A stretch of 41,367 nucleotides of DNA, taken from Nitriliruptoraceae bacterium (GTDB lineage: Bacteria > Actinomycetota > Nitriliruptoria > Nitriliruptorales > Nitriliruptoraceae). The stretch covers positions 1 to 41,367 of the forward strand of contig SKTN01000138.1 in the NCBI GenBank assembly GCA_007117945.1, written 5' to 3'. Positions 2,116-23,880 of the stretch are shown piece after piece. Under the pieces are notes generated by a model. It made no database searches and had not been told where the DNA came from. It worked only from the letters and a program-made list of their open reading frames with translations. Position numbers and translations under genes: made by a program. How positions within the stretch are numbered: the first letter of the stretch is position 1; every line of letters starts with the position of its first letter.

Positions 2116-2221
2116 CGGTGACCCTTCCATGAGGTGGGGTGCGCGTGGTGGTCCGCGTCGGCGGGCGTGCGCCCGTCGCGGCTCGGCGTGGCTGCGCCGA
2201 GGTGGTCATCCACCCTCGAGC

Positions 2222-3007
2222 CTAGAGGCCGTCCGCACCGCTGGCCGGTGTCCGGCTGGCCCCCTGCAGTTCCAGCAGGGCCCGGTGCAGGGCCAGGCTG
2301 CCGCGGACCCGGATCCGCCGCGCGATCGCGGGCTGGGACACCCCCAGCGCCGCGGCGACGTCGACCTGGCGCTCACCGTCCAGCAGGCCCATCAGCGCCC
2401 GCCGGTCCCGGGCGTCGAGGCGCGCCAGCAGCTGGTCCTGGAGGAGCAGGTGGGCGTTGATGGCACCCTCGAGCACGGGATCGTCCGCACGGCACCGGCT
2501 GCGCAGGGAGGCGGGCCAGCGCCGCGAGGCGGGCAGCTCCTCGGCCTCGGCCAGGGCGGCCCGGGCCAGGCTCGTGGCGGTGGCGAGCTCCGGGGTGTCG
2601 GGACCGGCAGTGGACCGAGGCGTGGGGGCTGGGCCCTCGGGGTCACCCGGGGCCGGGGGCCCCAGGCCGATCCCCAGGCGGAGCTCGACGGCCTCCCGGG
2701 TCCCGGAGCGGGTGGTGAGCACCAGCCCGTCGGTGCCCAGCCGCAGCCGCAACGCGGCGGCGGCCGCGGCACCGATGTCGGCGTAGGCGCCGAGGAACAC
2801 GTCCCGGTCGGTGCGGCGCAGGGCGAGCAGGCTGTCACCCGCGGCCTCGACCGTGGCCAGGGCGGCATCGAGGCCCGCCAGCAGCTGCGCGGTGTCGAGG
2901 TAGCGGCGTGAGGTCACCACATCCCCGGTGACCACCACCGGTCCCCGTACCTCCGCAGCCCCGCCGGACGTGAGCTGTGGGGGAGGGGCTGCCCCCGTGC
3001 TGGCCAT
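2222..3007 (-). CDS. Transcriptional regulator with C-terminal HTH (possibly SatD-like)
   Basis: C-terminus ERQVDVAAALGVSQPAIARRIRVRGSLALHRAL looks like an HTH. The N-terminal VVVTGDVVTSRRYLD... resembles the cyclase-like SatD N-domain (tentative). ATG at 3005-3007 is preceded by GAGGAGG with a 5-nt spacer. Confidence 0.55.
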   Translation of the reverse strand: MASTGAAPPPQLTSGGAAEVRGPVVVTGDVVTSRRYLDTAQLLAGLDAALATVEAAGDSLLALRRTDRDVFLGAYADIGAAAAAALRLRLGTDGLVLTTRSGTREAVELRLGIGLGPPAPGDPEGPAPTPRSTAGPDTPELATATSLARAALAEAEELPASRRWPASLRSRCRADDPVLEGAINAHLLLQDQLLARLDARDRRALMGLLDGERQVDVAAALGVSQPAIARRIRVRGSLALHRALLELQGASRTPASGADGL

Positions 3008-3082
3008 GTGGACCTCCTCGACCTGCCGCGTCGCCGACCGTGGGGACGCGGCGCCGATGACGACCCCACCCGACGGGAGATG

Positions 3083-3113
3083 CATAACGCATACGGTTAT
3101 GATACACGTACGG
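3083..3113. promoter_or_regulatory. AT-richer inverted repeat CATAAC-N7-GTTATG plus ACGCATACGG/ACACGTACGG direct half-repeats; candidate operator
   Basis: Lies in the 287-nt divergent intergenic region between the HTH regulator (start 3007, -) and acnA (start 3294, +). It is the most AT-rich patch of the region. Confidence 0.3.
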
Positions 3114-3293
3114 ACGTCAGCGAGCCCAGGGCCGCGTCCAGCGCCGCCGCACCGTACGGCGGAGGCGGGCGCCGGCGCCGCGCTCGACTAGGTTCGCCCC
3201 CCCGCCCGGTGGCCCCACCCACCTGCCTGGGCACGGTCACCGCGGACCTGCCACCAGCTCCGTTCCACCCCGTACCGATCCGGGAGCCCGCCG

Positions 3294-6101
<2,808 letters not shown>

Positions 6102-6167
6102 GCGTCCGTGGGTGTGCGCCGCGACGAACCTGGCGCACACCCACATCCCCACCCTCCGGAGGCCACG

Positions 6168-6800
6168 ATGCTGTTCGCCCGCCCACCGGCCACCGTGATC
6201 GACGCTGAGGACGCCCTCCCCGGGCGCGACACCCCGGTGTCGGTTCCCGAGGCGCACCACGTCCACGGCCGCCCCATCACCCCGCCCTGGCCCGATGGCC
6301 ACGCCGTACTGGTGGTGGGCATGGGCTGCTTCTGGGGCGCGGAGCGCATCTACTGGTCCCTCGACGGGGTGTGGACCACCTTCGTGGGCTACGCGGGGGG
6401 TCACACCCCCAACCCGACCTACCGGGAGGTCTGCACGGGCCGCACCGGCCACGCGGAGATCGCGGGTGTCGTCTACGACCCCGAGGTGGTCGGCCTCGGC
6501 ACCCTGCTCGGTGCCTTCTGGGAGCAGCACGACCCCACCCAGAGCATGCGCCAGGGCAACGACGTCGGCACCCAGTACCGCTCGATCCTGCTCACCACCT
6601 CCGACGAGCAGGTCACCGCCGCCGCCGCGAGCCGCGACCGCTACCAGGCGCGCCTGCGCGACGCGGGTGTGACGGCGCCGATCACCACCACGATCGAGCC
6701 GCTGGGCGAGGTCTACTGGGCGGAGGCCGAGCACCAGCAGTACCTGTCCAAGCACCCCGGTGGGTACTGCAACCACGGGTTCTGCCAGGCGGCCTACTGA
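6168..6800 (+). CDS. msrA: Peptide-methionine (S)-S-oxide reductase
   Basis: GMGCFWGAE motif, VGYAGGHTPNPTYREVCTGRTGHAE, HDPTQSMRQGNDVGTQYRS. ATG at 6168 is preceded by GGAGG with a 5-nt spacer. Confidence 0.9.
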   Translation: MLFARPPATVIDAEDALPGRDTPVSVPEAHHVHGRPITPPWPDGHAVLVVGMGCFWGAERIYWSLDGVWTTFVGYAGGHTPNPTYREVCTGRTGHAEIAGVVYDPEVVGLGTLLGAFWEQHDPTQSMRQGNDVGTQYRSILLTTSDEQVTAAAASRDRYQARLRDAGVTAPITTTIEPLGEVYWAEAEHQQYLSKHPGGYCNHGFCQAAY

Positions 6801-6932
6801 CGGACACCGCTGGCCGGCGCACCACGGTCCGGCTCCACGCGGCGGCGCCCAGGCGCGTGTAGCGTGGGAGCACACCTCCGGGTGCGCAGCAGCGTGCCCA
6901 CGCCCCGCCCGCCCCGCCTCGAGGTCGACCCG

Positions 6933-9332
6933 ATGATCCCCCGCGAGCTCCGCCTGCCACCCGAGCACCTGTTCCCACCCGATGAGTGGCGGCTGGTCGA
7001 GCGGGGCTACTCCGACCGCTGGATGGGCAACGCGGAGACGGTGTTCGCGCTGGGCAACGGCTTCCTCGGGATGCGCGGCACCTTCGAGGAGGGCCGGCCC
7101 GCGATCGAGCCGGGGACCTTCGTCAACGGCTTCCACGAGACCTGGCCGATCGTGCACGCCGAGGAGGCCTTCGGCTTCGCCCGCACGGGTCAGACCATCG
7201 TCAACTGCCCCGACGCCACCCTACTGAAGCTCTACGTCGACGACGAGCCCCTGTTCCTGCCCACCGCCCGCCTCGTCGAGTACGAGCGCACCCTGGACTT
7301 CCGCGAGGGCGTGCTGCGCAGGAACCTGACCTGGTCCACGCCCTCGGGCAAGAAGGTGACGCTCACGACCTCGCGGCTGGTGTCCTTCGTGCACCGCCAC
7401 CTCGGTGCCATCTCCTACGAGCTCGAGGTGGATGCGGACGCGCCCGTGGTGGTGTCCTCCCAGCTGCTCAACCGGCAGGACGCCCGGGCGGAGGACGAAC
7501 CCCGCACCAACAACGGCAGCGACCCGCGCCGCTCCCGGGGGTTCGGGCACCGGGTGCTCAACTCCAAGGGCATCTCCCAGGACGGGCACCGCATCGTCAA
7601 CGGGTACCGCACCACGAACTCCCGCATGACCCTGGGCGTCGGCGTCGACCACGTCATGGAGACCGACAACCCGTGGCGTGCGCAGCGCACCGCCGACGAC
7701 GACCTCGGCAAGGTCGTGTTCACCGTGGACGCGCGCGCCGGTGTGCCGATCCGCATCACCAAGTTCATGACCTACCACAGCTCACGCAACGTGCCCGCGA
7801 TGGAGCTGGTGGACCGTGGCTGGCGCACCCTGGACCGCGCCATGACCGAGGGCTACGGGGCCCTCGAGGCCGCGCAGCGCGACTTCCTCACCGACTTCTG
7901 GGAGCGGTCCGACGTCCAGGTGGAGGGTCCGGCGCGGGTCCAGCAGGCCATCCGCTGGAACCTCTACCAGCTGGCTCAGGCCTCGGCCCGGGCGGAGACC
8001 ACGGGCATCCCCGCCAAGGGGCTGACAGGGCAGGCCTACGAGGGCCACTACTTCTGGGACACCGAGGTCTACGTCGCGCCCTTCCTGACCTACACCGAGC
8101 CCCGGGTGACCCGCAACCTCCTGCGTTTCCGCCACTCCATGCTGCCCCTGGCGCGGGAGCGGGCCCGCGAGCTCAGCGAGGACGGGGCGCTGTTCCCCTG
8201 GCGCACCATCAACGGCGAGGAGGCCTCCTCCTACTACGCCGCGGGCACGGCGCAGTACCACATCGACGCCGACATCGCCCACGCGATCCGCCACTACGTC
8301 AACGCCCGCGGCGACAAGCAGCTGCTCAAGGAGGTGGGTGCGGAGATCCTGGTGGAGACCGCGCGGATGTGGTCGGGGCTGGGGTTCTTCAGCCCCGAGG
8401 ACGCCGCCTTCCACATCCACGGTGTGACCGGGCCCGACGAGTACACCACCGTGGTCAACGACAACGCCTTCACCAACATGATGGCGCGGGCGAACCTGCG
8501 CTACGCCGCCGAGGCGGTGCTGTGGCTCAAGGAGGAGGAGCCCGAGGCCTACGCCGCCCTGGAGCACGCCACCGGCCTGGCCAGCGAGGAGGTGCTGCGC
8601 TGGCAGCGGGCCGCCGACGCGATGTACGTGCCCTACGACGCCGACCGCGGCATCCACCCCCAGGACGCGAACTTCCTCGAGAAGGAGCGGTGGGACTTCC
8701 AGCACACCCCCACCGACCAGTACCCCCTGCTGCTGCACTACCACCCCCTGGTCATCTACCGCCACCAGGTGATCAAGCAGGCCGACGTGGTGCTCGCGAT
8801 GGTGCTCCTCGGTGACGAGTTCTCCCTCGAGCAGAAGCGCCGCAACTTCGACTACTACGACCCGCTGACCACGGGTGACTCCTCCCTGTCCGCCTGCGTG
8901 CAGTCGATCCTGGCCGCCGAGGTCGGTTACGAGCGCAAGGCCCTGGAGTACTTCCAGTACGCCCTGCTGATGGACCTCGCCGACGTGGCCGGCAACGTCG
9001 TGGACGGGGTCCACGTCGCCTCCGTGGGTGGGGTGTGGATGACCCTGGTCTACGGCTTCGGCGGCCTGCGCGACTACAACGGCGAGCTGTCCTTCGATCC
9101 GCGCCTGCCCCGCCCCTGGAACCGGCTGCGCTTCCCCCTGCGCTTCCACGACCGGCAGCTGGTGATCGACCTGACCCACGACACCTACACCTTCGAGGTG
9201 GTGTCCGGTGAGGGCGAGGTGACCATCGACGTCCGCGGTGAGGAGGTCATCCTGCGCCCGGGGGAGCCCGTGGAGCTGCCCGCCTCCGTCGGGACCACCC
9301 CGACCCCGGTGCTGGCCTCCGAGGACGCCTGA
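6933..9332 (+). CDS. Glycoside hydrolase family 65 protein (kojibiose/trehalose/maltose phosphorylase-like)
   Basis: About 800 aa. ETVFALGNGFLGMRGTFEE, GLTGQAYEGHYFWDTEVYVAPF, DYYDPLTTGDSSLS are typical GH65 N-terminal, catalytic and C-terminal features. Start set at MIPRELRLPPEHLF. Confidence 0.8.
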   Translation: MIPRELRLPPEHLFPPDEWRLVERGYSDRWMGNAETVFALGNGFLGMRGTFEEGRPAIEPGTFVNGFHETWPIVHAEEAFGFARTGQTIVNCPDATLLKLYVDDEPLFLPTARLVEYERTLDFREGVLRRNLTWSTPSGKKVTLTTSRLVSFVHRHLGAISYELEVDADAPVVVSSQLLNRQDARAEDEPRTNNGSDPRRSRGFGHRVLNSKGISQDGHRIVNGYRTTNSRMTLGVGVDHVMETDNPWRAQRTADDDLGKVVFTVDARAGVPIRITKFMTYHSSRNVPAMELVDRGWRTLDRAMTEGYGALEAAQRDFLTDFWERSDVQVEGPARVQQAIRWNLYQLAQASARAETTGIPAKGLTGQAYEGHYFWDTEVYVAPFLTYTEPRVTRNLLRFRHSMLPLARERARELSEDGALFPWRTINGEEASSYYAAGTAQYHIDADIAHAIRHYVNARGDKQLLKEVGAEILVETARMWSGLGFFSPEDAAFHIHGVTGPDEYTTVVNDNAFTNMMARANLRYAAEAVLWLKEEEPEAYAALEHATGLASEEVLRWQRAADAMYVPYDADRGIHPQDANFLEKERWDFQHTPTDQYPLLLHYHPLVIYRHQVIKQADVVLAMVLLGDEFSLEQKRRNFDYYDPLTTGDSSLSACVQSILAAEVGYERKALEYFQYALLMDLADVAGNVVDGVHVASVGGVWMTLVYGFGGLRDYNGELSFDPRLPRPWNRLRFPLRFHDRQLVIDLTHDTYTFEVVSGEGEVTIDVRGEEVILRPGEPVELPASVGTTPTPVLASEDA

Positions 9333-9386
9333 CCCCGGCCCACCACCGCGACCAACCCCACGATGCACCCCGAGGGAGGTGTCCCC

Positions 9387-10541
9387 ATGCGTGTCCGTCT
9401 CCGCAACCCCGACCGCACCGTCGAGGTCGAGGGACCCTGCACCGTGGCCGAGCTCCTCGACCACCTCGACGTCCTGCCCCACACCGTGCTGGTCCTCAAC
9501 GACCGCGCCCTGGTCACCGCCGACCACCTGCTCCCGGCGGACGCCGAGGTGGAGGTCCGCCCCGTCATCAGCGGCGGGGCGGAGGGTGCCCCGCGCTGCG
9601 CGGTGTGCCGTGCGCCGGCGGTGCTGGAGGAACGGCGGCACCGTGCCGCGTGGTGCGCGGACCACCTCGCCGACCACGTGCAGAACCAGATCCGCAAGGC
9701 GATCGACCACCCGCCCGGGCTGCCGGCGGGGGAGCGGATGTGCTCCTACGCCGACCGGCTCCTGGTCGCGGTCAGCGGTGGCAAGGACTCCCTGGCGCTG
9801 TGGGACGCCCTGACGGAGATGGGCTACCGGGTCGACGGGCTGTACGTGGGGCTCGGCATCGGGGGCTACTCGGAGCGCAGCCGCGAGGTGTGTGCGGCCT
9901 TCGCTGCCGAGCGGGGCCTCGACCTGCACGTGGTCGAGCTCGCCGAGGAGTACGGCTACACCACACCCTCGGGTGCGGGGGCCGCGGGGCGCTCCACCTG
10001 CGGGGTGTGCGGGCTGTCGAAGCGCTACGCCTTCAACCGCGTGGCCGTGGACCACGGCTACGACGTGCTGGCCACCGGCCACAACCTCGACGACGAGGCC
10101 GCGACCCTGCTGGGCAACGTGCTGCGCTGGCAGGAGTCCTTCCTCGCCCGGCAGCACCCTGTCCTGCCCGCCACCGGCGCCAACCAGGTCCGCAAGATCA
10201 AGCCGATGTACCGGCTCTCCGAGCGGGAGAGCGCCGCCTACTGCGTGGTGCGGGGCATCGACTACGTGGTGGAGGAGTGCCCCCTGGTGGACGGCAATAC
10301 CGGCCACGAGCTCAAGGCCGCCTTCGACCTGCTGGAGGCGGCGTCGCCGGGCCTCAAGGCCCAGTTCCTGTTCGGGTTCTACGACCGTCAGGACCGCCTC
10401 GTGGACCCGCGCGCCGAGGAGGAGGTCGAGCTCGCCGAGTGCGGCAGCTGCGGCATGCCGACCACGGGTGCGGTGTGCGCCTTCTGCCGGCAGCGCGAGC
10501 TGATCGTCCAGGCCCTGCCCGTGCGCACGGGTGCCAGCTGA
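9387..10541 (+). CDS. Fusion protein: ThiS/MoaD/TtuB-like beta-grasp domain (ends ...VISGG) + TtuA-type tRNA 2-thiolase (PP-loop ATPase with two zinc fingers)
   Basis: The first ~64 aa are beta-grasp-like and end in GG (codons 9573-9578), with no stop. Then follow CAVC..CADH, the PP-loop SGGKDS (9774-9791), CGVCGLSKRY, ATGHNLDDEAA and CGSC..CAFC (10440-10487). GGGAGG lies 7 nt before the ATG at 9387. Confidence 0.8.
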   Translation: MRVRLRNPDRTVEVEGPCTVAELLDHLDVLPHTVLVLNDRALVTADHLLPADAEVEVRPVISGGAEGAPRCAVCRAPAVLEERRHRAAWCADHLADHVQNQIRKAIDHPPGLPAGERMCSYADRLLVAVSGGKDSLALWDALTEMGYRVDGLYVGLGIGGYSERSREVCAAFAAERGLDLHVVELAEEYGYTTPSGAGAAGRSTCGVCGLSKRYAFNRVAVDHGYDVLATGHNLDDEAATLLGNVLRWQESFLARQHPVLPATGANQVRKIKPMYRLSERESAAYCVVRGIDYVVEECPLVDGNTGHELKAAFDLLEAASPGLKAQFLFGFYDRQDRLVDPRAEEEVELAECGSCGMPTTGAVCAFCRQRELIVQALPVRTGAS

Positions 10542-11515
10542 TGGACACTGACCCGCACGCCGCTCCGGAGCACGCGGGCGGTCCGGTCCTGCCCGGTACC
10601 GATGCGCCCCTGGCTCCGGGTGAGCTGGTCCTGCTCCTCGACCGCAAGGGGCGGCGCTACCTCGTCGAGCTCGAGCCCGGTGCCCAGTGGCACAGCCACG
10701 GTGGACTGGTCGAGCACGACGCCATCATCGGCAGCAGCGAGGGCACCGCGATCCGCACCAGCAAGGCGATGGAGGTCCTGGCGCTGCGGCCCACCCGCGA
10801 GGACTACGTGCTCAAGATGCGGCGCGGCGCCCAGGTGGTGTACGCCAAGGACCAGGCGATGATCGTCGCCCTGGCCGACGTGCGCCCCGGGGCCACGGTG
10901 ATCGAGGCCGGTGCGGGCTCCGGCGCCCTGACCCTGGCGTTGCTGGCGGCCGTGGGGCCCACGGGGCGGGTCGTGTCCTTCGAGCGCCGCGAGGACCACG
11001 CCCGGATCGCGCGCCGCAACGTCGAGCGTTTCCACGGGCAGCTGCCCGACAACTGGGACCTCGAGGTCGACGACGTCGTCACGGGGCTGGCGGGGCGGCG
11101 CGCCCACCGGGTGGTGCTGGACCTGCTGGAGCCCTGGTCGGCCGTGGCGGCGGTCACCGAGGTGCTGCCGCCGGGCGGGATCGTGTGCGCCTACACCCCC
11201 GGCGTGCCCCAGGTGATGCGCCTCACCGACGAGCTGTGGGCTTCGGGGCGGTTCACCGAGGTCCGCACCAGCGAGACCCTGGTGCGGCCCTGGGACGTCG
11301 ATGGTCTGGCGGTGCGTCCCGCGCACCGGATGGTGGCCCACACCGCCTTCCTGACCACGGCCCGCAGGGTCCCCGCGCGTGAGGAGGGCGGCCCGGCCCG
11401 CCGTCGCCGCAAGGCCGACACCGGGGGCACCGTGGACTGGGCGGCGGGCGACCGTGCCCGGGACGCCGCCGGGGCGCCCCCTGCCGGCGAGGCTCGGGAG
11501 GGATCGCGCGGATGA
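10541..11515 (+). CDS. trmI: tRNA (adenine58-N1)-methyltransferase
   Basis: Gcd14/TrmI-like: RGAQVVYAKDQAMIVALADVRPGATVIEAGAGSGALTLALL, then VRPAHRMVAHTAFL. The ATG overlaps the upstream TGA (TGATG, 10539-10543). The position upstream of arc matches Rv2118c-Rv2115c synteny in mycobacteria. Confidence 0.85.
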   Translation: MDTDPHAAPEHAGGPVLPGTDAPLAPGELVLLLDRKGRRYLVELEPGAQWHSHGGLVEHDAIIGSSEGTAIRTSKAMEVLALRPTREDYVLKMRRGAQVVYAKDQAMIVALADVRPGATVIEAGAGSGALTLALLAAVGPTGRVVSFERREDHARIARRNVERFHGQLPDNWDLEVDDVVTGLAGRRAHRVVLDLLEPWSAVAAVTEVLPPGGIVCAYTPGVPQVMRLTDELWASGRFTEVRTSETLVRPWDVDGLAVRPAHRMVAHTAFLTTARRVPAREEGGPARRRRKADTGGTVDWAAGDRARDAAGAPPAGEAREGSRG

Positions 11516-11535
11516 TGCGTGGGCCCGTACCGGCG

Positions 11536-11691
11536 TCAGGCGCGCCGGCCCGAGGCCACCGTGGCGATCAACGCGACGGCCAGGACACCGGGGATCGCGA
11601 GCAGCAGGCTGGCACCGATGGCCGTCACCGCGAGCAGCGCGCCCACCGCCCCGGCACCGATCGTCGTCAGTAGCTCCGCGGTACGGCTCAC
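11536..11691 (-). CDS. Small hydrophobic membrane protein (51 aa), hypothetical
   Basis: VSRTAELLTTIGAGAVGALLAVTAIGASLLLAIPGVLAVALIATVASGRRA. GTG is preceded by GGAGG with a 7-nt spacer. The rest of ORF 11536..11895 looks non-coding. Confidence 0.4.
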   Translation of the reverse strand: MSRTAELLTTIGAGAVGALLAVTAIGASLLLAIPGVLAVALIATVASGRRA

Positions 11692-11967
11692 GGGGTGTCC
11701 TCCGGCTGCGGGCGGAGCGCAACGCGCTCTCCTCGAGCATGCCGCACCGCCCGCCGCCGCGCGTGCGCACCACCCCGTCCGTACGGCAGGGACATGGGCC
11801 CGGGGAGCGCGACGGCACGGTGGCGTGACCGGTGCGGCCCCGACGCGCGCGCGACGACGCGCGCAGCCTCCCACGGATCGGTCCGGCTCGTACACTCGCC
11901 GTCGCGGCGACGCGAGACCGCCCCGCGGGGCGGGACCGGGTCAGCCACCCCGACGCGAGGAGGCCAC

Positions 11968-13827
11968 GTGGTGGGTCCACAGCGGGACGGCGAGGACCGG
12001 GAGCAGGCTGCGGGTGACCGGGGCTTCGACCCGCCTGGCCTCGATCCGGATCCCCTGGCCTCGGGCGGCGGCGCCTTCGACCAGCTACCGGTCCCGCAGG
12101 CCGAGCCGGCGGACGAGAACGACCCCGACGCCGTGCTCGCGGAGCTCAAGGTGCTGCGCGAGGAGGCTGAGCTCCTGCGTCGTCGCCTGGCCAGCGCCCC
12201 GACCCGGATCCGGGTACTCGAGGAGCGCCTGCTGGAGACCTAGGGCCAGCTGCATTCGGCCACGGCCCAGAACGCGAAGCTCGCCGAGACCCTGCGCAGC
12301 GCCCGCGACCAGCTCACCACGCTGAAGGAGGAGGTCGAGCGCCTCTCCGCCCCACCCCAGACCTACGGCACCTACCTCGGTGTCGGTGCGGACGAGGACA
12401 CCCTCACGGTGATGGTCTCGGGCCGCAAGCTCGAGGTCTCCACCAGCCCCGAGGTCGAGGTGGCCGACCTCGAACCCGGCCAGGAGGTCCGGCTCAACGA
12501 CGCCATGAACGTCGTGGCGGTCGGCGGGTTCGAGGACCGCGGCGAGGTGGTGACCATCGCCGAACTGCTCGGCGACGGCCGGGTGCTGGTGGTGGGCCGC
12601 ACCGACGACGAGCGGGTGGTCACCCTCGCCACGCCGCTGCGGGAGCTGCCCCTGAAGGCCGGGGACTCCCTGCTCCTCGACCCCCGCGCGAACACCGCCC
12701 TGGAGCGCATCCCCAAGGCCGAGGTGGAGCAGCTGATCCTCGAGCAGGTCCCCGACGTCACCTACGAGCAGATCGGCGGCCTCGGCGACCAGGTCGAGGC
12801 GATCCGTGACGCCGTCGAGCTGCCCTACCTCCACGCGGAGCTGTTCGTCGAGCACGAGCTGCGCGCACCGAAGGGGATCCTGCTCTACGGCCCGCCCGGC
12901 TGCGGCAAGACCATGATCGCCAAGGCCGTGGCCAACTCCCTGGCGCAGCGCGTGGCGGAGCGCACGGGTCGCACCGACGTGACCAGCTACTTCCTCAACG
13001 TCAAGGGTCCGGAGCTGCTCAACAAGTACGTCGGCGAGACCGAGCGCCAGATCCGGCTGATCTTCCAGCGGGCCCGGGAGAAGTCGGCCCAGGGCTTCCC
13101 CGTCATCGTGTTCTTCGACGAGATGGAGTCGCTGTTCCGCACCCGCGGCTCCGGGGTGTCCTCCGACGTGGAGACCACGATCGTGCCCCAGCTGCTCGCG
13201 GAGATCGACGGGGTGGAGAGCCTCAAGGACGTGGTGGTGATCGGCGCCTCCAACCGCGAGGACATGATCGACCCCGCGATCCTGCGCCCCGGGCGGCTCG
13301 ACGTGAAGATCAAGGTGGACCGCCCGGGCGCGGACGCCGCCCGCGAGGTGTTCGCGATCTACCTCCACGAGCGCCTGCCCCTGGCCGAGGAGGAGGTGCG
13401 CACCGCCGGCGACCCGGCACGGGCGATCGCGGCGATGATCGACCGCACCGTGGAGAAGATGTACGCCACCGACCCGGACAACGAGTTCCTCGAGGTCACC
13501 TACGCCAACGGGGAGAAGGAGGTCCTGTACTTCAAGGACTTCAACTCCGGGGCGATGATCGAGAACGTGGTGGCCCGCGCCAAGAAGCTCGCGATCAAGC
13601 GGCTGCTGGACACCGGCGACCGGGGCCTGCGCACCCGGGACCTGCTCACCGCGATCCGCGACGAGTTCCGTGAGAACGAGGACCTGCCCAACACCACCAA
13701 CCCCGACGACTGGGCGCGGATCAGCGGCAAGAAGGGCGAGCGGATCGTCTACGTGCGCACGTTGCTGTCGGGCCAGGACACGCCGGGCCGCTCGATCGAG
13801 AACGTCAACCCCGGGCAGTACCTGTGA
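11968..13827 (+). pseudogene. arc: Full-length ARC/Mpa proteasomal AAA+ ATPase reading frame, interrupted by in-frame TAG at 12241-12243
   Basis: GAGGAGG SD followed by GTG at 11968 or 11971. Frame-1 translation gives an acidic N-terminus and a coiled coil (AELKVLREEAELLRRRL...[48 protein letters not shown]), continuous with the OB and AAA domains. About 619 codons, similar to Mpa (609 aa). Confidence 0.7.
12409..13827 (+). CDS. arc: ARC/Mpa AAA+ ATPase, uninterrupted downstream ORF (OB domains + AAA module)
   Basis: Walker A GPPGCGKT, Walker [36 protein letters not shown], and a C-terminal ...PGQYL proteasome-docking tail. The first canonical starts after the TAG are GTG 12406 and ATG 12409. 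Confidence 0.85.
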
Positions 13828-13837
13828 ACGGCAGGCG

Positions 13838-15325
13838 ATGAGCACGCCCAAGTACGTCGGTGTGGAGACCGAGTACGGCATCACCGTCGACGGTCCGAAC
13901 CCCGTGAACCCGGTCCTGGCCTCCTCGATGGTGGTGGGGGCCTACCGCGCCGCCGGGGACGACGACGTGCGCTGGGACCACACCGACGAGTCGCCCCAGC
14001 GTGACGCCCGGGTGGGCACGGTGCCGGAACCGGGCGAGCCGATGATCGACGACGAGCTCGGGCTGGCCAACACCGTGCTCACCAACGGCGCACGCTTCTA
14101 CGTCGACCACGCCCACCCGGAGTACGCCACCCCGGAGTGCACCAACGCCCGCGACCTGGTGGTGTGGGACCGGGCCGGTGAGCTGATCCTGGCCGACGCC
14201 GCCGAGCGGGCGGCGGCCAGCCTGCCGGCGGGCAGCCGGGTGCTGATCCACAAGAACAACACCGACGGCAAGGGGGCGGCCTACGGCACCCACGAGAACT
14301 ACCTCGTGCCCCGTACCGTGCCCTTCGGGCGCCTGACCCGCCAGCTCCTGCCCTTCTTCGTCAGCCGGCCGCTGTACACCGGTGCCGGCCGCATCGGCAG
14401 CGAACTGGACGGGCGCGTGGGCTTCCAGCTCACCCAGCGCGCCGACTTCTTCGAGGTGGAGGTGGGGCTCGAGACCACCCTCAAGCGCCCGCTGATGAAC
14501 ACCCGGGACGAGCCCCACGCCGACCCGGAGCGCTACCGCCGTCTCCACGTGATCAACGGCGACGCGAACCTGTGCGAGGTGGCGACCTTCCTCAAGGTCG
14601 GCACGATGCTGCTCCTGCTCGACGCGATCGAGGACGACGCGCTGCCGGCGGTGCCCGTGCTCGCCGAGCCCGTGGCCGCCTTCCACGCCGTCAGCCACGA
14701 CCTGACCGCTCGGGTGGAGCTGCCTCTGGAGGACGGGGGCACGATCACCCCCCTGGCGCTGCAACGCTGGTACCTCGATGCCGTCCGCCGCTACGTCAAG
14801 GACCGTGACCAGCCCCTGGACGCCACCGGTGAGGAGGTGCTGACCCGCTGGGAGGCCGTGCTGGCCACCGCGGAGGAGGACCCCCGTCTGCTGGCGGGCC
14901 AGGTGGACTGGGCCACCAAGCTGGAACTGCTCGAGGGCTACCGGGCTCGCCACGGGCTCGAGTGGACCAGCGACCGGCTCAAGATGGTCGACCTGCAGTA
15001 CCACGACGTGCGGCGGGACAAGGGGCTCTACCACCGCCTGGCCGCCCGGGGACGCATCGAGCGGCTGGTCGGTGACGACGAGGTGGCGGCCGCGGTACGC
15101 ACCCCGCCCGAGGACACCCGCGCCTGGTTCCGCGGCGAGTGCATCCGCCGGTTCCGGTCCCAGGTGGTCGCCGCGGGCTGGGACGCGTTGATCCTGGACC
15201 CGGGGCAGGACAGCCTGCAGCGCGTGCCGATGATGGAGCCCGGCCGGGGGACCCGGGTGCAGGTCGGCGCGCTCCTCGACGAGGTGGAGGACGTCGCCGG
15301 CCTCCTCGCACGCCTCCGGGCGTGA
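13838..15325 (+). CDS. dop: Pup deamidase/depupylase
   Basis: [32 protein letters not shown]. Has a Dop-type loop insertion (RWDHTDESPQRDARVGTVPEPGEPMIDDELG) that is absent from the pafA paralogue. Located between arc and pup. Confidence 0.9.
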   Translation: MSTPKYVGVETEYGITVDGPNPVNPVLASSMVVGAYRAAGDDDVRWDHTDESPQRDARVGTVPEPGEPMIDDELGLANTVLTNGARFYVDHAHPEYATPECTNARDLVVWDRAGELILADAAERAAASLPAGSRVLIHKNNTDGKGAAYGTHENYLVPRTVPFGRLTRQLLPFFVSRPLYTGAGRIGSELDGRVGFQLTQRADFFEVEVGLETTLKRPLMNTRDEPHADPERYRRLHVINGDANLCEVATFLKVGTMLLLLDAIEDDALPAVPVLAEPVAAFHAVSHDLTARVELPLEDGGTITPLALQRWYLDAVRRYVKDRDQPLDATGEEVLTRWEAVLATAEEDPRLLAGQVDWATKLELLEGYRARHGLEWTSDRLKMVDLQYHDVRRDKGLYHRLAARGRIERLVGDDEVAAAVRTPPEDTRAWFRGECIRRFRSQVVAAGWDALILDPGQDSLQRVPMMEPGRGTRVQVGALLDEVEDVAGLLARLRA

Positions 15326-15429: not shown

Positions 15430-15633
15430 ATGAGCGACGGCGGTCAGGCCCACCGGCGTAGCAGCGACCAGGCCGATACGCAGGCCGAGGAGCACGCGCC
15501 CGTCGAGGGCGAGGGTGCCACGGCCCGTGAGGTGGTCGACGACGTCGACGAACTCCTCGACGAGATCGACGACGTCCTCGAGGAGAACGCCGAGGAGTTC
15601 GTGCGCGGGTACGTCCAGAAGGGCGGCCAGTAG
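15430..15633 (+). CDS. pup: Prokaryotic ubiquitin-like protein Pup
   Basis: 67 aa, acidic and disordered-looking. C-terminus ...EEFVRGYVQKGGQ (a GGQ end, which requires Dop deamidation). Confidence 0.95.
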   Translation: MSDGGQAHRRSSDQADTQAEEHAPVEGEGATAREVVDDVDELLDEIDDVLEENAEEFVRGYVQKGGQ

Positions 15634-15711
15634 TCCCGCCGCCGTCGGAGCCACCCGGCGTGCTGCCGGTGGTGCTGGCATCCCGGGTGCCGCTGCCTAC
15701 CCTGGCTGGTC

Positions 15712-17847
15712 ATGGATCTCCCGGACGCCCTCGAGCGGCCGGCGGTGCGGTGGACGTTGCTCGCCGTCGGTGGACTGCTCCTCCTGCACCTGGTCGCCTG
15801 GGTGAGCCTGCTCGGCCTGCAACGCAGCCACACCGACGCGGTGCTGGCCGGCGTCGAGGTCGATGCGGTCGCGGTCGGCGGGATGGACCGGGCGGGCCTC
15901 GTGGCGGCGGTGGAGGACCGGGCCACACAGCGTCTCGCCCAGCCGGTGCGCGTGGTCACCAGCGCCACCACGGACACCGACGAGCCCCTGGCGGCACTGC
16001 AGGACGCCCGTGCCGCGCTCGGCCAGCGGGCCGACACGCCCTCCGCGGTCGAGGAGGCCTGGGCGAAGGGTCGACGCGGCCTGCGGCGGGCCCTGGCCGA
16101 TCAGCTGCGGGTCCGTACCGGTGACACCCTGCACGTGGTCCTGCCCGTCCACATCGACGGCGACGAGCTGGAGGCGTGGGCGTCGACGGCCGCCCTGGAG
16201 CTGTCCATCCCGCCACGGGACGGTGCCATCGCGCTCTCGGGCGACGACGGCGACGTGGACATCGAGGTGACCGACGCGCGACACGGCACCGAGGTGGAGG
16301 CGGCCGAGGTGCGCGAGCAGGTCCGCGAGGCCACGATCCGCTCCGTGGGCCCCGTACGGGTCGAGGTGGCTGCGGAGCAGCTCGAGCCGGACATCACGCA
16401 GGTGGACGTCGACGCGGCGCTGGCCGACACCGAGCTCGCCGTGTCCGCAGCCGTCGAGCTCGACCACCCCTCCACCGCCGGTGAGGACCTGGTCCTCGCG
16501 CCCACCGACCTCGCCGAGGTGCTCCACGTCATCGCGGACCGGGAGGCCGCCGAGGGCGCCCGCCTGCAGGTCACGACCGATCCCGACCGGCTCGCCGACC
16601 ACCTCGGTGAGGAGCAGCTCGCGGCCCTGTCACCCGAGCGGGTCGAGGCGTCCCTGGCACTGGTCGACGGCGCGGTCGAGCGCACCGAGAGCGCCCGCGG
16701 CTTCGAGCTCGACCTGGCAGCGACGACCGCCACCGTGCTGGACCTGGCGTCGCAGGATGCGGACCGCAGCGCCGAGCTCCCCGGCGAGATCTTCGAGCCG
16801 GAGATCACCACCGAGGACGTCGAGGCGGTGGCCGGCGAGGCCGAGGTGCTGGTCAGCGCCCCCGTGACCCTCACCAACCCCTCCGCCGCAGACGACCTGG
16901 AGCTGTCACCCACCGCCCTCTCCGAGGTGCTGGACGTCGAGGTGGTGGTCGACGATGACGGGCCGTCCCTGCGGGTGGGATCCTCGGCCGACCGGCTCAC
17001 GGGGTGGCTCGGCGAGGACGGCGTGGCAGCGTTGGAGAGGAGCCCCGCGCCTGCCGACGCCAACGTCGTCGGCGGCCAACTGGTCGTGGACGGCGGCACA
17101 CCAGGGTTCTCCGTGGACACCGATGCCACGGCCGAGGTGGTGGTCGACCGGGCGCGGGACCCCGACGACCGGTCCGCAGAGCTACCCGGCGACACCACCC
17201 ACGCGGACGTCTCCCCGCAGACCTACGAGGATCTCGGGATCACCGAGGTCGTGTCCCAGTTCACCACCGATCTGACCCCGGGGCAGTCGCGCAACACCAA
17301 CATCCGCCTGGCCGCCGACCACATCGACGGCGACCGCATCCTGCCGGGCGAGAGCTACTCGCTGAACCAGGGCATCGGTCAGCGCACCGCTGCACGGGGC
17401 TTCGTCGCGAACGGTTTCATCCAGGACGGCGAGCTGATCAGCGTCACCGGCGGTGGCGTCAGCCAGATGGGCACCACCTTCTTCAACGCCGCCTGGTTCG
17501 CCGGCATCCGGATCGATGAGTTCCACCCCCACTCCCTGTACTTCGCCCGCTACCCCGAGGGGCGCGAGGCGACCCTGTCCTGGGGCACCCTCGACGTCGT
17601 GGTGCACAACGACTCGCCCTACGCGATCGAGATCTTCACCTCGCACAGCGCCTCGCACGTGACGGTGTACCTCGCGAGCACCAGCTGGGCGGCGGTCGAC
17701 ACCTGGACCGGGGAGCGCTACGACCTCGTCGAGGGCGACGAACGGGACGGGTTCACCGTCGACTTCGGCCGCGAGATCACCTACCCCGACGGCTCCACCA
17801 CCTCCGAGAGCTACTCCCACACCTACCGCCCGGCGAACGGCGACTGA
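15712..17847 (+). CDS. VanW/YoaR-family membrane-anchored protein with repeated PG_binding_4-like modules
   Basis: N-terminal TM (WTLLAVGGLLLLHLVAWVSLLGL). Two or three internally similar ~125-aa modules end in D.DDRSAELPG(E/D). C-terminal VanW domain (NIRLAADHIDGDRILPGESYSLNQ..., GGGVSQMGTTFFNAAW). No SD; TACCCT (15698-15703) sits 8 nt before the ATG, so the mRNA may be leaderless. Confidence 0.75.
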   Translation: MDLPDALERPAVRWTLLAVGGLLLLHLVAWVSLLGLQRSHTDAVLAGVEVDAVAVGGMDRAGLVAAVEDRATQRLAQPVRVVTSATTDTDEPLAALQDARAALGQRADTPSAVEEAWAKGRRGLRRALADQLRVRTGDTLHVVLPVHIDGDELEAWASTAALELSIPPRDGAIALSGDDGDVDIEVTDARHGTEVEAAEVREQVREATIRSVGPVRVEVAAEQLEPDITQVDVDAALADTELAVSAAVELDHPSTAGEDLVLAPTDLAEVLHVIADREAAEGARLQVTTDPDRLADHLGEEQLAALSPERVEASLALVDGAVERTESARGFELDLAATTATVLDLASQDADRSAELPGEIFEPEITTEDVEAVAGEAEVLVSAPVTLTNPSAADDLELSPTALSEVLDVEVVVDDDGPSLRVGSSADRLTGWLGEDGVAALERSPAPADANVVGGQLVVDGGTPGFSVDTDATAEVVVDRARDPDDRSAELPGDTTHADVSPQTYEDLGITEVVSQFTTDLTPGQSRNTNIRLAADHIDGDRILPGESYSLNQGIGQRTAARGFVANGFIQDGELISVTGGGVSQMGTTFFNAAWFAGIRIDEFHPHSLYFARYPEGREATLSWGTLDVVVHNDSPYAIEIFTSHSASHVTVYLASTSWAAVDTWTGERYDLVEGDERDGFTVDFGREITYPDGSTTSESYSHTYRPANGD

Positions 17848-17899
17848 CCCGCGCGCGGCGCCGCCGACGCCACGGGGTGCACCACGCCGTGCCCGCCGG

Positions 17900-19060
17900 T
17901 CAGGCCACCGGCGGGGCGAACCGGAGCCAGCTGCCGTGCGCCTGCACCCGGCCCAGCGCCGCGTCGTGGCGCTGCCCGTCGACCCAGCGGGTGGTCGCGA
18001 TCACGAAGCCCGGCTGGTCGGGATCGGGCGGGCCGAGCTGCCGGGCGACGAGCTCCGCGAAGGGCGCCAGGAAGTGGCCCTCGAGCCCGACCCGCCACAG
18101 CGCCCGCCGGGCACCGATGCGATCGAGGAGCGCCTCGAAGTGCTCCCGGTCCCCGGGGGCGAGGTAGGCCAGGGTGGCACTGTGCAGCACGACGACCTGG
18201 AGGTCCGGCTCGATCGCGGTGACGACGGGCTCGAGGAGCTCGAGCAGGTCACCCTGGTGCAGTTCGATGTCGTCGTGCGCGGCCGCCAGGGTCAGTGCCG
18301 CGTCGAGCCGGGCCAGCCGGTCGACGTGCTCGGGCCAGACGCAGGCGCGCAGCCACGCACGGTCGTCCGGATCGCCGACCCGCAGCGGCGTGCGGTCGAT
18401 GCCGATCCGTCGCGCCACCGGTGCCAGGTCCGTGCCCGGCACCTGGTCCAGGCAGCGCGTCTCGAGCACCACCGGCGGCGGGGATCCCGCACCGGGGACC
18501 GACGCGGTCGCTGACCGGGTCACGGCGTCGCCGGCAGCGGCCACGAGACGGTGGACGTAGCGATCGAGGTGCAACAGCAGCCCGGCGCTGGTCCCGACCT
18601 CGACCAGGGCGAGTCGGCGGGTGGGCGCTGCACCACGCTCCGGGCCCGCTCGGCGCTGGAGCCACGACACGGCCGCGCGCTGGCCGGCGGTGCGACCCGG
18701 TTCGTTGGTCTGGGTCGAGCGGGCCTGGAGCCGATCCACGATCGCGTCACGATGGCGGTCCAACACCGCGAGGAACGCGGCCGTGGCCGCGGCATCGGGC
18801 GCCCGGTCACCCCCGACGGAGGGGTAGTAGGCCGCCAGCGCGCCCTGCTCGACCCCGCGGAGCAGCAGGTCGTGCACCGCCGCGAAGACCAGCGTCGCCC
18901 GCCGTTGCGCGAGCGGCGCCAGGTCGAGGATGCCGGCGGCGTCCTCGTCGCCTGCCAGCGCACCGCTGAGGTGGGCGTACAGCGGCGAGGTGGGACGGGC
19001 CTCCTGCGCGAAGGTGGCGAAGCGCAGGGCCGCCGTGGTGTCGTCCTGGGTGGGATGCAT
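17900..19060 (-). CDS. DUF2332-family protein (function unknown)
   Basis: N-terminus LRFATFAQEARPTSPLYAHLSGALAGDEDAAGILDLAPLAQRRATLVFAAVHDLLL is typical of DUF2332 (recognised from memory). GGGAGG lies 8 nt before the ATG. Confidence 0.6.
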   Translation of the reverse strand: MHPTQDDTTAALRFATFAQEARPTSPLYAHLSGALAGDEDAAGILDLAPLAQRRATLVFAAVHDLLLRGVEQGALAAYYPSVGGDRAPDAAATAAFLAVLDRHRDAIVDRLQARSTQTNEPGRTAGQRAAVSWLQRRAGPERGAAPTRRLALVEVGTSAGLLLHLDRYVHRLVAAAGDAVTRSATASVPGAGSPPPVVLETRCLDQVPGTDLAPVARRIGIDRTPLRVGDPDDRAWLRACVWPEHVDRLARLDAALTLAAAHDDIELHQGDLLELLEPVVTAIEPDLQVVVLHSATLAYLAPGDREHFEALLDRIGARRALWRVGLEGHFLAPFAELVARQLGPPDPDQPGFVIATTRWVDGQRHDAALGRVQAHGSWLRFAPPVA

Positions 19061-19327
19061 CCGTGCGACCTCCCGGTCGCGCAGCGTAGGCGTGGACCTC
19101 GCGGCAGCCGCCCGTCACCCCACGTCCCCGTGACATCGATGCACCCGGTTCGGCGGCGGTGCCCGCACATCGATGCTTGCATCGTGCCGGGAGGCCGCTA
19201 GCGTTCCGCCGGTACTACCGCGGTAGGTGGTTGGGAGGCCCGGCCGGGGGGTCCCGTCGCCGGTCCTGAGTACCTACCGATCGTCGTGGCCGCACGGTCA
19301 CGGAGACGGAACGATCAAGGAGTCAGC

Positions 19328-20335
19328 ATGACCGTGTTCAAGCGCAAGCGCAGCCGCACGCTTCGTCTTGCGGCAGCGGTGGCAGCGGGTGCCATGATCC
19401 TCGCCGCGTGCAACGGCGACGAGGACGTAGCCGACGACGACAACGGGGAGGCGGCGGCCGAGGACCGCGTCTTCCTGACGATGGCCACGGGCTCGACCGG
19501 TGGGACCTACTTCCCGCTCGGTGGCGCGATGGCCGGGGTGTGGAACGACAACATCGACGAGGTCCGGGTCAACACCCAGTCCTCCGGTGCCTCCGTGGAG
19601 AACCTGCGCCTGCTGCAGTCGGGCGAGGTCGACATGGTCCTCGCGGTCAACGGTGTCGCTGCCGACGCCATCGCCGGTGAGGGGGAGTTCGAGGGCGAGG
19701 ACTACGACTTCGTCACCATCGGCAACATCTACGGTGAGGTCACCCAGATCGTCGCCACCGCGGAGTCCGGCATCACCTCGATCGCCGACCTCGAGGGTGC
19801 CCGCGTCGCGCTCGGCCCCCCGGGATCCGGCACCGAGGTGATCGCCCGCTTCATCCTCGAGACCCAGGGCATCGATCCCGACAGCGACATCGAGGCGTTC
19901 AACGACACCTTCGGTGAGGCCGCCGACGGTCTGCGTGACGGCCGCCTCGACGCCGCCTTCGCCATCCTCGCGCTGCCGGCAGGTTCCATCGAGGAGGTCG
20001 CGACCTCCGTGGACATCAACATCGTCTCCATCGAGGGTGACCTCATGGACACCCTGCTGGACGCCGATCCGACCCTGTCCTCCCTGGACATCCCGGCCGG
20101 GACCTACCCCGGTCAGGACGACGACGCGGTCACCGTGACCAACTGGGCGACGCTCTACGCCCCGGCGGATCTCGACGAGGACCTCGTCTACGAGATGACC
20201 CGGGTGCTGTTCACGGAGACGGAGTCGATCGCCAACGCGATCGCCGTCGGTGAGCAGATCCAGATCGACACCGCCCTGGACGGCAACGACATCGACGTGC
20301 ACCCCGGTGCACAGCGCTTCTACGACGAGAACTAG
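19328..20335 (+). CDS. TAXI-family TRAP transporter solute-binding lipoprotein
   Basis: Signal peptide plus lipobox (AMILAAC). TGSTGGTYFPLGGAMAGVWN and LQSGEVDMVL are TAXI hallmarks. AAGGAG lies 5 nt before the ATG. The mature protein is very acidic. Confidence 0.85.
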   Translation: MTVFKRKRSRTLRLAAAVAAGAMILAACNGDEDVADDDNGEAAAEDRVFLTMATGSTGGTYFPLGGAMAGVWNDNIDEVRVNTQSSGASVENLRLLQSGEVDMVLAVNGVAADAIAGEGEFEGEDYDFVTIGNIYGEVTQIVATAESGITSIADLEGARVALGPPGSGTEVIARFILETQGIDPDSDIEAFNDTFGEAADGLRDGRLDAAFAILALPAGSIEEVATSVDINIVSIEGDLMDTLLDADPTLSSLDIPAGTYPGQDDDAVTVTNWATLYAPADLDEDLVYEMTRVLFTETESIANAIAVGEQIQIDTALDGNDIDVHPGAQRFYDEN

Positions 20336-20904
20336 TGCCAGACACCGGCGCAGCGGGTGGGACGCGGCTCACGCCGTCGTCCCCACCTGCGCGCCGTCGC
20401 AGCATCCCGGTGGTGGCCGTCACGCTCGTGGCGGCCACCACCGTCGTCGTGGCCCTGGTCCTCGTCGGACGCGGGGGCGGGGAGCGGCCGGTACTGGAGC
20501 TCGGCGATCCCTCCACCGGCGAGCTGCTCTACGAGCGACCCGTCGAGGTGGGGGAGGAGCTCGTGCTCACCCACACCCACTCGGTCACCCGTCGACCGGT
20601 GATCGAGCGGTTCTCCGTGGACGACGACCACGGCCTGACCCTCGAGTCGATGGAGTTCGACGAGCCCGGGCCCAACCTGCCCACGGGCCCGGAGCGGTTC
20701 GGGGAGCAGATGACCTCGTTCGAGACGGTGGATGGCGTCTATCGTGTCGACCACCACGGGTACCCGATCGGGAGCGTGACGCTGCGCACGGGAGGCGCGG
20801 ATGTCGACCACACGCTCACCTTCGGTGACGGTGAGCAGGTCCGCCTGCTCGAACTGACCAGGGCCGGGGGACCGGTCGAGCTGCGGGTCGCAGGGGAGAG
20901 GTGA
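20335..20904 (+). CDS. DUF1850 domain protein (TAXI-TRAP associated)
   Basis: Single N-terminal TM followed by ...LVLTHTHSVTRRPVIERFSVDDDHGLTLESMEFD... Located between the TAXI SBP and the fused permease, as is usual for DUF1850. The GTG overlaps the SBP stop (TAGTG). Confidence 0.65.
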   Translation: MPDTGAAGGTRLTPSSPPARRRSIPVVAVTLVAATTVVVALVLVGRGGGERPVLELGDPSTGELLYERPVEVGEELVLTHTHSVTRRPVIERFSVDDDHGLTLESMEFDEPGPNLPTGPERFGEQMTSFETVDGVYRVDHHGYPIGSVTLRTGGADVDHTLTFGDGEQVRLLELTRAGGPVELRVAGER

Positions 20905-20965
20905 GCACCGCAGCACCGCCGAGGTGTCCGAGCGCCCTGCACGGGGTGGCAGTGGGAGGAGCGAG

Positions 20966-23350
20966 ATGAGCGAGTCCAGGGACCAGGCCCGTTCCGGCGA
21001 GGGCGCGCCCGAGGAGCCGGCGAAGCAGCGCAAGAGCTCCAGCGCCTTCGATGAGGCCAGGGGACAGGTCGCCGACCTGCCCGACGAGCTCCGTGAGGAG
21101 CTCGAGGCCGACATCGCCGAGCTCGAGGAGCTCAGCTTCGCCGACGTCTCCGGTGGGACCCGCGAGGACATGCGCCCCACCTGGCGCTTCATCGTCTTCG
21201 GTGCCGCGCTGATCCTGAGCCTCTTCCACCTCTACACGGCCATGTTCGGCGTGCTCCCCGGCCTGCAGCAGCGCTCGTTCCACCTCGGCATGGGCCTCGC
21301 CCTGGTGTACCTGCTCTACCCGGGTCGGCAGGACCTCGAGGGTCGGGACCTGCTGCGCAGCTGGGTCACCATGGCGGCTGCCGGCGGCGTCCTCGCCCTG
21401 ATGTACGTACGCGAGGTGGCCGACTGGTACATCGTGGTCGGTGGGGCCATCGTCGTGCTGGCCGTCTTCGCCTCGCGGCACCTGCCGCTGCGGATCGGGG
21501 GGATCCCCCTCGGTGACGTGGCGCTGGCGGGGCTGTCGGTGGGTGCCGGCGGCTACATCTTCAACAACTGGAACGAGATCGGCCGCGCCGTCGGCGCGGA
21601 GACCGACTTCACCGTCGGGCTCGCGGCCGTCGGAGTGCTGCTGGTGCTGGTGGCCACCCAGCGGGTGATCGGCACGCCGTTGACCGTGGTGGCCTCCGCC
21701 GCCCTGCTGTTCGCCTACTTCGGCCAGTCCATGCCCGGCTTCCTGGCGCACGCCGGGTTCTCCGTGCGCCGCATCGTCTCCACGATGTTCCTCGGCACCG
21801 AGGCGGTGTTCGGCACCCCGATCCAGGTGTCGTCGACCTTCATCTACATCTTCATGATCTTCGCCGCCCTCCTGCAGCGCACGGGGATGGAGCGCTTCTT
21901 CACCCAACTGGCCTTCGGGCTCACGGGGTGGATGACCGGTGGCACCGCGAAGGTCGGCGTGCTGACCTCCGCCTTCTCGGGCACGATCACCGGCAGCTCG
22001 GTGGCCAACACGGTGTCCAACGGTGCCTTCACCATCCCGATGATGAAGAAGTCGGGGTACAAGGGGGAGTTCGCCGGCGCCGTCGAGGCGGCCTCCTCCA
22101 CCGGTGGGCAGCTCGCCCCACCCATCATGGGCGCCGCGGCCTTCATCATGATCGAGCTGACCGGCCTGCCCTACTCCACGATCATCCGGGCGGCGGCGAT
22201 CCCCGCGATCCTGTTCTTCACCGCCCAGTTCATCGTGATCCACTTCGAGTCCAAGCGGCTGGGCATCATGGGGCTGCCCAAGCACAAGCTGCCCCAGCCG
22301 CGGCAGCTGATGCTCACCAAGGGCTACCTGCTGATCCCCATCGGGGTCATCTTCTTCCTCCTGGCCCAGGGACGCTCGGCGATCCGCTCCGCGCTCTACG
22401 CGGTGTTCGCCGTGGTGATCATCAACATCGTGGTGCAGCTGATCTCCGCGGTCTTCGGCCGCTGGAAGGACATGGAGGACCGGCTCAGCTTCCTCGGCCT
22501 GCTCGACGCCCTGGTCGACGCGGCGCGCATCGCCCTGCCGATCATCGTCGCCTGTGCCGCCGCCGGGATGGTCGCGGGGGTGATCACCCTCACCGGGGTC
22601 GGCCTGCAGCTGGTCAGCGGGCTGCTGTCCCTGGCCGGTCAGACCCTGATCCTGACGATGTTCTTCTCCATGATCGCCTGCCTGGTGCTGGGCATCGGCC
22701 TGCCCACCACGGCGAACTACGTGATCACGGCGACCCTGGTGGCGCCGGCGCTGCTGTTCTTCGACGCCGTGCCGGTGATCGCGGCCCACATGTTCGTGTA
22801 CTACTTCGGCATCATGGCCGACATCACCCCGCCGGTGTGCCTGGCCTCCTACGCGGCCTCGGGGATCGCCCAGTCGAACCCCCTGAAGACCGGCGTGCAG
22901 TCGGTGAAGATCGCCATCGGTGGCTTCCTCCTGCCCTACATGTTCGTGCTCTCGCCCCAGCTGCTGCTGGAGGAGGCCACGATCGCCCAGGGCGTCCTGG
23001 CGGCGATCAGTGCGCTGATCGGTATCACCGCCGTGGGACTGGCGGTGGTGGGCTATATCGATCGTCGCATCAACTGGCTGATCCGTGCCGTGCTGCTCGC
23101 CTCGGGGCTGTCGCTGCTGAGCGCCGACCCGCTGCTCGACGCCGCCGGCCTGATCACCTTCATCGCGATCTACCTGTGGCAGCGGGTCACGGGCGACATC
23201 GGCCGACGGCGGGAGCAGCAGGCTGCAGCGGCGGGGGCAGCCGGCACGGCCGACGGTGGCGACCAACGCGCCGGTGAGGAACCAACCGCCGAGACGACGC
23301 AGCGCGGCGACAGCGACAGCACACGTGCGGACGACGACGAACAGAGGTGA
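20966..23350 (+). CDS. TRAP transporter fused permease (4TM/12TM, TAXI type)
   Basis: About 790 aa, polytopic. FHLYTAMFG, GTAKVGVLTSAFSGTITGSSVANTVSNGAFTIPMMKKSGY, ATLVAPAL. ATG at 20966 is preceded by GGGAGGAG. Acidic low-complexity N- and C-terminal tails. Confidence 0.85.
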   Translation: MSESRDQARSGEGAPEEPAKQRKSSSAFDEARGQVADLPDELREELEADIAELEELSFADVSGGTREDMRPTWRFIVFGAALILSLFHLYTAMFGVLPGLQQRSFHLGMGLALVYLLYPGRQDLEGRDLLRSWVTMAAAGGVLALMYVREVADWYIVVGGAIVVLAVFASRHLPLRIGGIPLGDVALAGLSVGAGGYIFNNWNEIGRAVGAETDFTVGLAAVGVLLVLVATQRVIGTPLTVVASAALLFAYFGQSMPGFLAHAGFSVRRIVSTMFLGTEAVFGTPIQVSSTFIYIFMIFAALLQRTGMERFFTQLAFGLTGWMTGGTAKVGVLTSAFSGTITGSSVANTVSNGAFTIPMMKKSGYKGEFAGAVEAASSTGGQLAPPIMGAAAFIMIELTGLPYSTIIRAAAIPAILFFTAQFIVIHFESKRLGIMGLPKHKLPQPRQLMLTKGYLLIPIGVIFFLLAQGRSAIRSALYAVFAVVIINIVVQLISAVFGRWKDMEDRLSFLGLLDALVDAARIALPIIVACAAAGMVAGVITLTGVGLQLVSGLLSLAGQTLILTMFFSMIACLVLGIGLPTTANYVITATLVAPALLFFDAVPVIAAHMFVYYFGIMADITPPVCLASYAASGIAQSNPLKTGVQSVKIAIGGFLLPYMFVLSPQLLLEEATIAQGVLAAISALIGITAVGLAVVGYIDRRINWLIRAVLLASGLSLLSADPLLDAAGLITFIAIYLWQRVTGDIGRRREQQAAAAGAAGTADGGDQRAGEEPTAETTQRGDSDSTRADDDEQR

Positions 23351-23790: not shown

Positions 23791-23874
23791 ACGCACCGCG
23801 CGTCCCGCGGGGCGACCGCCGGGTCGTACGCCGGAGGGCACCGGGTGGTGGCGCCGGTCCCAGCCCGTGCGGGT

Positions 23875-23880
23875 TACGCT
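23875..23880 (+). promoter_or_regulatory. Putative -10 hexamer TACGCT upstream of prcB
   Basis: TANNNT box 24 nt before the prcB GTG, in the 114-nt USP-prcB spacer. Confidence 0.25.

Follow-up and report, generated by a model that had tools for sequence, protein, structure and literature searches.

The window, by which we mean the whole 41,367-nucleotide contig analysed (G+C ~72%), carries the Pup-proteasome genes of a Nitriliruptoraceae bacterium. A TrmI-like methyltransferase gene lies 5′ of arc/mpa, and arc is followed in order by dop, pup, prcB, prcA, pafA, pafB, pafC, tatC and a HelY-like helicase gene. The products of dop, pup, prcB, prcA and pafA score above curated cut-offs, pafB and pafC are also present, and all of these neighbours are intact, as an earlier note made from this DNA had stated for the Pup-proteasome genes. 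The features of arc and of the two genes that follow it are given below, where X1, X3 and X4 are public DNA runs, X2 is a metatranscriptome of the same sample as X1, and L100 is a contig of an independent ENA assembly.

11957–11963, forward strand: Shine-Dalgarno-like GAGGAGG 5′ of the arc start, read from the sequence
11968–13827, forward strand: arc/mpa, proteasome-associated AAA+ ATPase, 619 codons if read through and broken at codon 92 (7px9 and TIGR03689 matches)
11968–12243, forward strand: N-terminal fragment ORF, 91 codons plus TAG
12036, forward strand: synonymous SNP, CCT in the window and CCC in X1–X4; the T of the window also occurs in L100, which makes it a real polymorphism
12121–12345, forward strand: coiled-coil region, placed by alignment to Mpa, orthologue alignment and coordinates
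12241–12243, forward strand: in-frame TAG; the T at 12241 stands in place of the A (AAG, Lys) of all other copies
12253–12255, forward strand: second private change, 14 nt 3′ of 12241; the window has CAT (His), every other copy and most orthologues have CAG (Gln)
12409–13827, forward strand: longest ORF after the stop, 472 aa, from GTG 12409 / ATG 12412, lacking the coiled coil as well as the beginning of the first OB domain
12889–12912, forward strand: Walker A, GPPGCGKT
13102–13128, forward strand: Walker B region, VIVFFDEME
13813–13824, forward strand: C-terminal GQYL, aligned with the C-terminus of M. tuberculosis Mpa
13838–15325, forward strand: dop (depupylase/deamidase), intact, 596.6 bits on TIGR03688 against a cut-off of 492.3
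15430–15633, forward strand: pup, ending ...KGGQ and then TAG

The frame of arc is opened by a pair of GTG codons at 11968/11971 and runs through 91 sense codons, the TAG and a further 527 sense codons to a TGA at 13825–13827. GAGGAGG precedes this start, which is in frame with both the TAG and the downstream ORF, just as the earlier note had read it, and an independent gene call on the intact allele of L100 gives the identical start and end. Right after the TAG, G+C by codon position is 0.70/0.55/0.95 (positions 1/2/3); since the third-position value is 0.95, the coding signal runs on without pause and is unbroken across 12241–12243. When read through, the product of 619 aa aligns with M. tuberculosis Mpa (7px9, E 1e-212) from query residue 47 through to its end and reaches 788.6 bits on NCBIfam TIGR03689 (pup_AAA, proteasome ATPase), for which the cut-off is 504.75. 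The two OB domains (PF17758, PF16450) and the AAA+ module (PF00004) behind them are found as precomputed Pfam matches in the L100 gene and in P0068, the 472-aa truncated product of the window arc, and the protein ends in ...NPGQYL. The C-terminal GQYL motif docks Mpa to the 20S core. The gene thus has the score, coiled coil, OB and AAA+ domains, GQYL and synteny of the ARC/Mpa family; an uninterrupted reading frame is found in the L100 copy and in the Logan contigs of X1–X4 and is missing from the window arc alone among these.

M. tuberculosis Mpa (7px9, 7ljf, 5kwa, 5kzf) and the window arc align from the coiled coil to GQYL and share an architecture of N-terminal coiled coil, two OB domains and AAA+ module, as well as a neighbourhood of dop, pup, prcBA and pafABC. 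Compared with M. tuberculosis Mpa, the window arc has two peculiarities. First, ~50 residues encoded by 11968–12120 extend the protein N-terminally of the coiled coil; this extension is of low complexity, acidic and proline-rich, and both it and the GTG GTG start are common to the closest Nitriliruptoraceae orthologues, in which the sequence of the extension is poorly conserved. Second, codon 92 is the private TAG, which lies within the helix region of ~residues 52–126 aligned to the Mpa coiled coil, so that the earlier claim of an amber codon inside the coiled coil of arc/mpa is upheld. This N-terminal coiled coil is homologous to the Pup-binding helix and is conserved in 80 related loci. Mpa/ARC coiled coils are the direct recruitment domains for Pup (PMC8755798).

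After the stop, in-frame start codons first occur at GTG 12409 and ATG 12412, 55 codons downstream and 3 nt away from the positions 12406 and 12409 given in the earlier note. A product restarted there would lose the Pup-docking coiled coil and be cut into its first OB domain, the consequence that the note had foreseen.

No copy of the sequence outside this contig has the TAG at 12241. Logan contigs, a form of the 2019 runs that drops rare or minor variants, have A at 12241 in X1, X3, X4 and X2 at full depth (188.6/188.6, 17.1/17.1, 12.8/12.8 and 244/244, respectively) and G at 12255, and these contigs are otherwise identical to the window over hundreds of bases, with no differences, for example, in 12279–12926. 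L100, which differs from the window by 7 SNPs in 9066–12608 (~3.5 kb) and encodes a TrmI-like protein exactly identical to that of the window, has an uninterrupted arc of 619 aa, in which the two sites are AAG (Lys) and CAG (Gln). Among the Nitriliruptoraceae orthologues, L001 (88% amino-acid identity), P0001 (92%) and L100 (near-identical in the 5′ half) share with the window the GTG GTG after GAGGAGG, the length of 619 aa and the LEERLLET-K-GQLQS motif; they differ from it in having AAG and CAG where the window has TAG and CAT. Over 80 related genome loci, the stop column holds K in 40, R in 26, E in 7, Q in 4, S and A in one each and a gap in one, AAG is the commonest codon, and none of the 80 has a stop inside the coiled coil. 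All 17 JGI metagenome contigs that match the flanking 24 nt (a 29-nt pattern) also have AAG, these being only 75–79% identical and none of the same strain; a 36-nt pattern over the site had no match in JGI metagenomes. The orthologue alignment that the earlier note had proposed is thereby answered: the sense codon in this column is AAG (Lys), and the stop is not shared.

The broken products are likewise confined to this contig. P0068 forms a singleton cluster in a collection of 15 billion proteins and is known only from the window, while its 119 other best relatives are full length (558–658 aa). No record of the 91-aa fragment was found elsewhere by exact-protein look-up, no indexed public run holds the sampled 31-mers with the T alleles, and no raw RNA read of runs X21 or X22 matches the window allele perfectly at a depth of only ~4x. 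The X21/X22 reads are strand-specific and consistent with sense transcription of arc. Exact look-ups of the Pup, Dop and TtuA-like proteins led only to contigs missing the site or to L100. Sequence of the window occurs in public metagenomes of soda lakes or alkali sediments and in one metatranscriptome, and among genomes it comes closest to Nitriliruptoraceae MAGs of soda-lake sediments, with L001 as the best; no public run holding ~100% of the window was found, and the best, X1, holds 0.82–0.88 of its words. A study of soda-lake samples obtained 38 different Nitriliruptoraceae MAGs with MEGAHIT on Illumina reads (PMC6704655) and is probably the source of the window.

The TAG is a non-programmed point change, an A-to-T transversion from Lys AAG to TAG. 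We give an even chance to a nonsense allele that is real, though rare and of very recent origin in this haplotype, and that was captured by metagenome assembly, and we infer that the T is present in cells as well as in the assembly. Under this reading, an A-to-T transversion in the haplotype of the contig would have turned Lys AAG into TAG, translation would stop after 91 residues, and any product restarted at GTG 12409 / ATG 12412 would be without the Pup-docking coiled coil, so that the allele would probably amount to a loss of function in Pup-dependent degradation. The surrounding population encodes and transcribes intact arc. The contig is demonstrably a real sister haplotype. It differs from the populations in X1–X3 by about one SNP per kb, and synonymous changes predominate (13 against 4 non-synonymous in 20–40 kb, ~20 against 11 in the whole window), which argues that the differences are real variation under purifying selection and not assembly error. 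Some of the private alleles of the window recur elsewhere: L100 has the T at 12036, and X3 has those at 11389, at 29569 and at the pair 26469/26503. Close-set differences also occur at 11389/11404, 21326/21327 and 26469/26503, and the pair 12241/12255 is therefore not unusual. Beyond the Gln-to-His change close by, arc shows no additional decay, and the intactness of the rest of the gene and of all neighbouring Pup-proteasome genes fits a very recent event. An early impression that all private letters of the window are T (12036, 12241, 12255) was rejected, as private differences elsewhere are of all types.

Several observations count against a real allele and also favour an assembly or sequencing artefact, in which the codon of the organism is AAG and the consensus has a wrong T at 12241 and probably at 12255 too; we regard this as a serious prospect at somewhat below even chances. 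First, the T has no support outside the contig, being absent from the four runs X1–X4, the independent assembly with L100, the k-mer index of public runs, the X21/X22 reads and the protein collection; X3 even has the haplotype of the contig at other private sites and yet A at 12241. Second, both private arc changes are non-synonymous at conserved positions of a strongly conserved protein, unlike the pattern elsewhere in the window. Such an error could arise, for example, from low local coverage, from duplicated damaged templates or from a poor path through a tangled graph of co-occurring relatives, and the likely source community did yield 38 Nitriliruptoraceae MAGs (PMC6704655). The arc region is also an assembly trouble spot, fragmented or mosaic in other assemblies: contig L098 has its first base at 12999, the change of strain in L100 falls at ~12609, and breaks in Logan contigs lie at 12246/12258 and 12279. 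Against an artefact stands the behaviour of the other private differences of the contig, which act like real variation and are in part confirmed elsewhere. Two linked changes 14 nt apart would moreover be hard to obtain from independent read errors in a k-mer assembler (MEGAHIT in the likely source study, PMC6704655), where k-mer filtering would presumably discard two identical errors at this spacing unless two or more reads had them. Neither T occurs in any contig of a relative at ≥90% identity, so the contig is not a chimera of abundant relatives, and there are no frameshifts or other broken genes in the window.

Two features of the region were seen beside this question. Over 12668–12931, the Walker A region of arc, Logan word depth in X1 rises to 1,000–10,000, likely because many community members share the conserved AAA+ sequence, and this sharing helps to explain the assembly breaks in arc. 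The first 6568 nt of L100 (window 8948–15285) are a mosaic, with 7 SNPs in 9066–12608 and ~90% identity outside; the switch points lie inside a GH65 gene and inside arc, and past dop a polysaccharide deacetylase gene on the other strand takes the place of pup. This mosaic is either a chimeric assembly or the outcome of recombination between co-occurring relatives.

If the rare nonsense allele is real, it would presumably be null for Pup-dependent substrate recruitment while the genes for pupylation, depupylation and the 20S core are intact, and if it were also frequent, it would provide a small natural experiment on the dispensability of Mpa in a soda-lake actinobacterium. It is very unlikely that the TAG stands at appreciable frequency in one sediment layer, where it would mark an arc-null lineage with intact dop, pup, pafA and prcBA and with pupylation uncoupled from Mpa-dependent degradation in situ, or where a coiled-coil-less ATPase (12409/12412) would serve Pup-independent degradation.

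The earlier note had listed four origins for the stop. Two of these survive as set out above, an error of sequencing or assembly and a nonsense mutation of very recent date; a split gene and readthrough are unsupported because the stop is absent from every other copy and all orthologues, TAG is an ordinary terminator, and there is no start for 55 codons. A functional split gene, in which a 91-aa coiled-coil peptide and a 472-aa ATPase from 12409/12412 act jointly or separately, is very unlikely. GAGGA at 12394–12398 lies 10–13 nt 5′ of GTG 12409 / ATG 12412 and speaks for a split gene, but these letters simply encode Asp-Glu-Asp. Mpa constructs lacking the coiled coil have been solved (5kwa, 5kzf; aligned from query residues 128–130), and an ATPase without it can therefore fold; the restart, however, would lose ~18–20 residues beyond these solved constructs, cutting into the first OB domain, and it lies far enough past the stop to lose half of the coiled coil. 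The split recurs in no relative, with the 119 other best matches full length and 80 of 80 loci open across the coiled coil, and the second part has no start of its own beside the stop.

Programmed readthrough or recoding of the TAG to full-length Mpa by a suppressor tRNA, pyrrolysine or context is the least credible reading of all, because the coding signal and homology that run across the stop are equally expected for any fresh nonsense change, whereas the stop is conserved in none of the 80 loci, both the 17 JGI contigs and the near-identical copies have AAG, and the window has no tRNA gene. TAG ends 4 of the 29 genes in the window, including pafA and pup, whose C-terminal GGQ must be exposed; the ending of pup in ...KGGQ-TAG shows that TAG terminates translation in this organism, where it is an ordinary terminator. 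An evolved readthrough signal 3′ of the stop was not considered a sensible hypothesis for a stop without conservation. A window-wide pattern of recoding or error was also rejected: at each of the five other same-frame junctions of high-GC3 segments, one gene ends normally in TGA and a new start comes after an intergenic stretch, so that no gene in the window other than arc is interrupted. The evidence thus lends no support to readthrough, recoding or a conserved split gene.

The window arc is an ordinary arc/mpa with a contig-private substitution, which involves no new mechanism and is of a kind already known. Like other nonsense polymorphisms, pseudogenes and consensus errors of MAGs, it is a single-base premature stop in a conserved gene, with no further decay and in one assembly; nothing sets it apart from these except its location in the substrate-recruitment domain of a well-studied machine, and its biological weight is small. 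In annotation, arc of this record should carry a flag for a pseudogene or a possible error of sequence, not for recoding or a split gene. For the species, an intact Mpa and a complete Pup-proteasome system should be scored, since elsewhere this population encodes and transcribes an unbroken arc.

The neighbourhood has some further peculiarities. The usual pup-prcBA unit is interrupted, as pup (15430–15633) and prcB (23845–24717) lie ~8 kb apart; the insert at 15634–23844 encodes a VanW-like protein, DUF2332, a TAXI-family TRAP solute-binding protein, a fused TRAP permease and a small ORF, and this arrangement is borne out up to 20633 by the independent contig L098. Positions 21326–21327 in the TRAP permease, CG in the window and AA in X1–X3, are a clustered multi-nucleotide difference that makes an Arg to Lys difference. 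Between pafA and pafB, two ORFs of 185 aa and 669 aa without a Pfam match lie on the reverse strand (26856–29464). At 30537–30652, the C-terminal end of the pafB-like gene (29588–30670) contains 5.5 copies of a 21-nt (7-aa) tandem repeat, and the transcript contig of X2 is shorter there by 63 nt, or three units, which points to a copy-number polymorphism.
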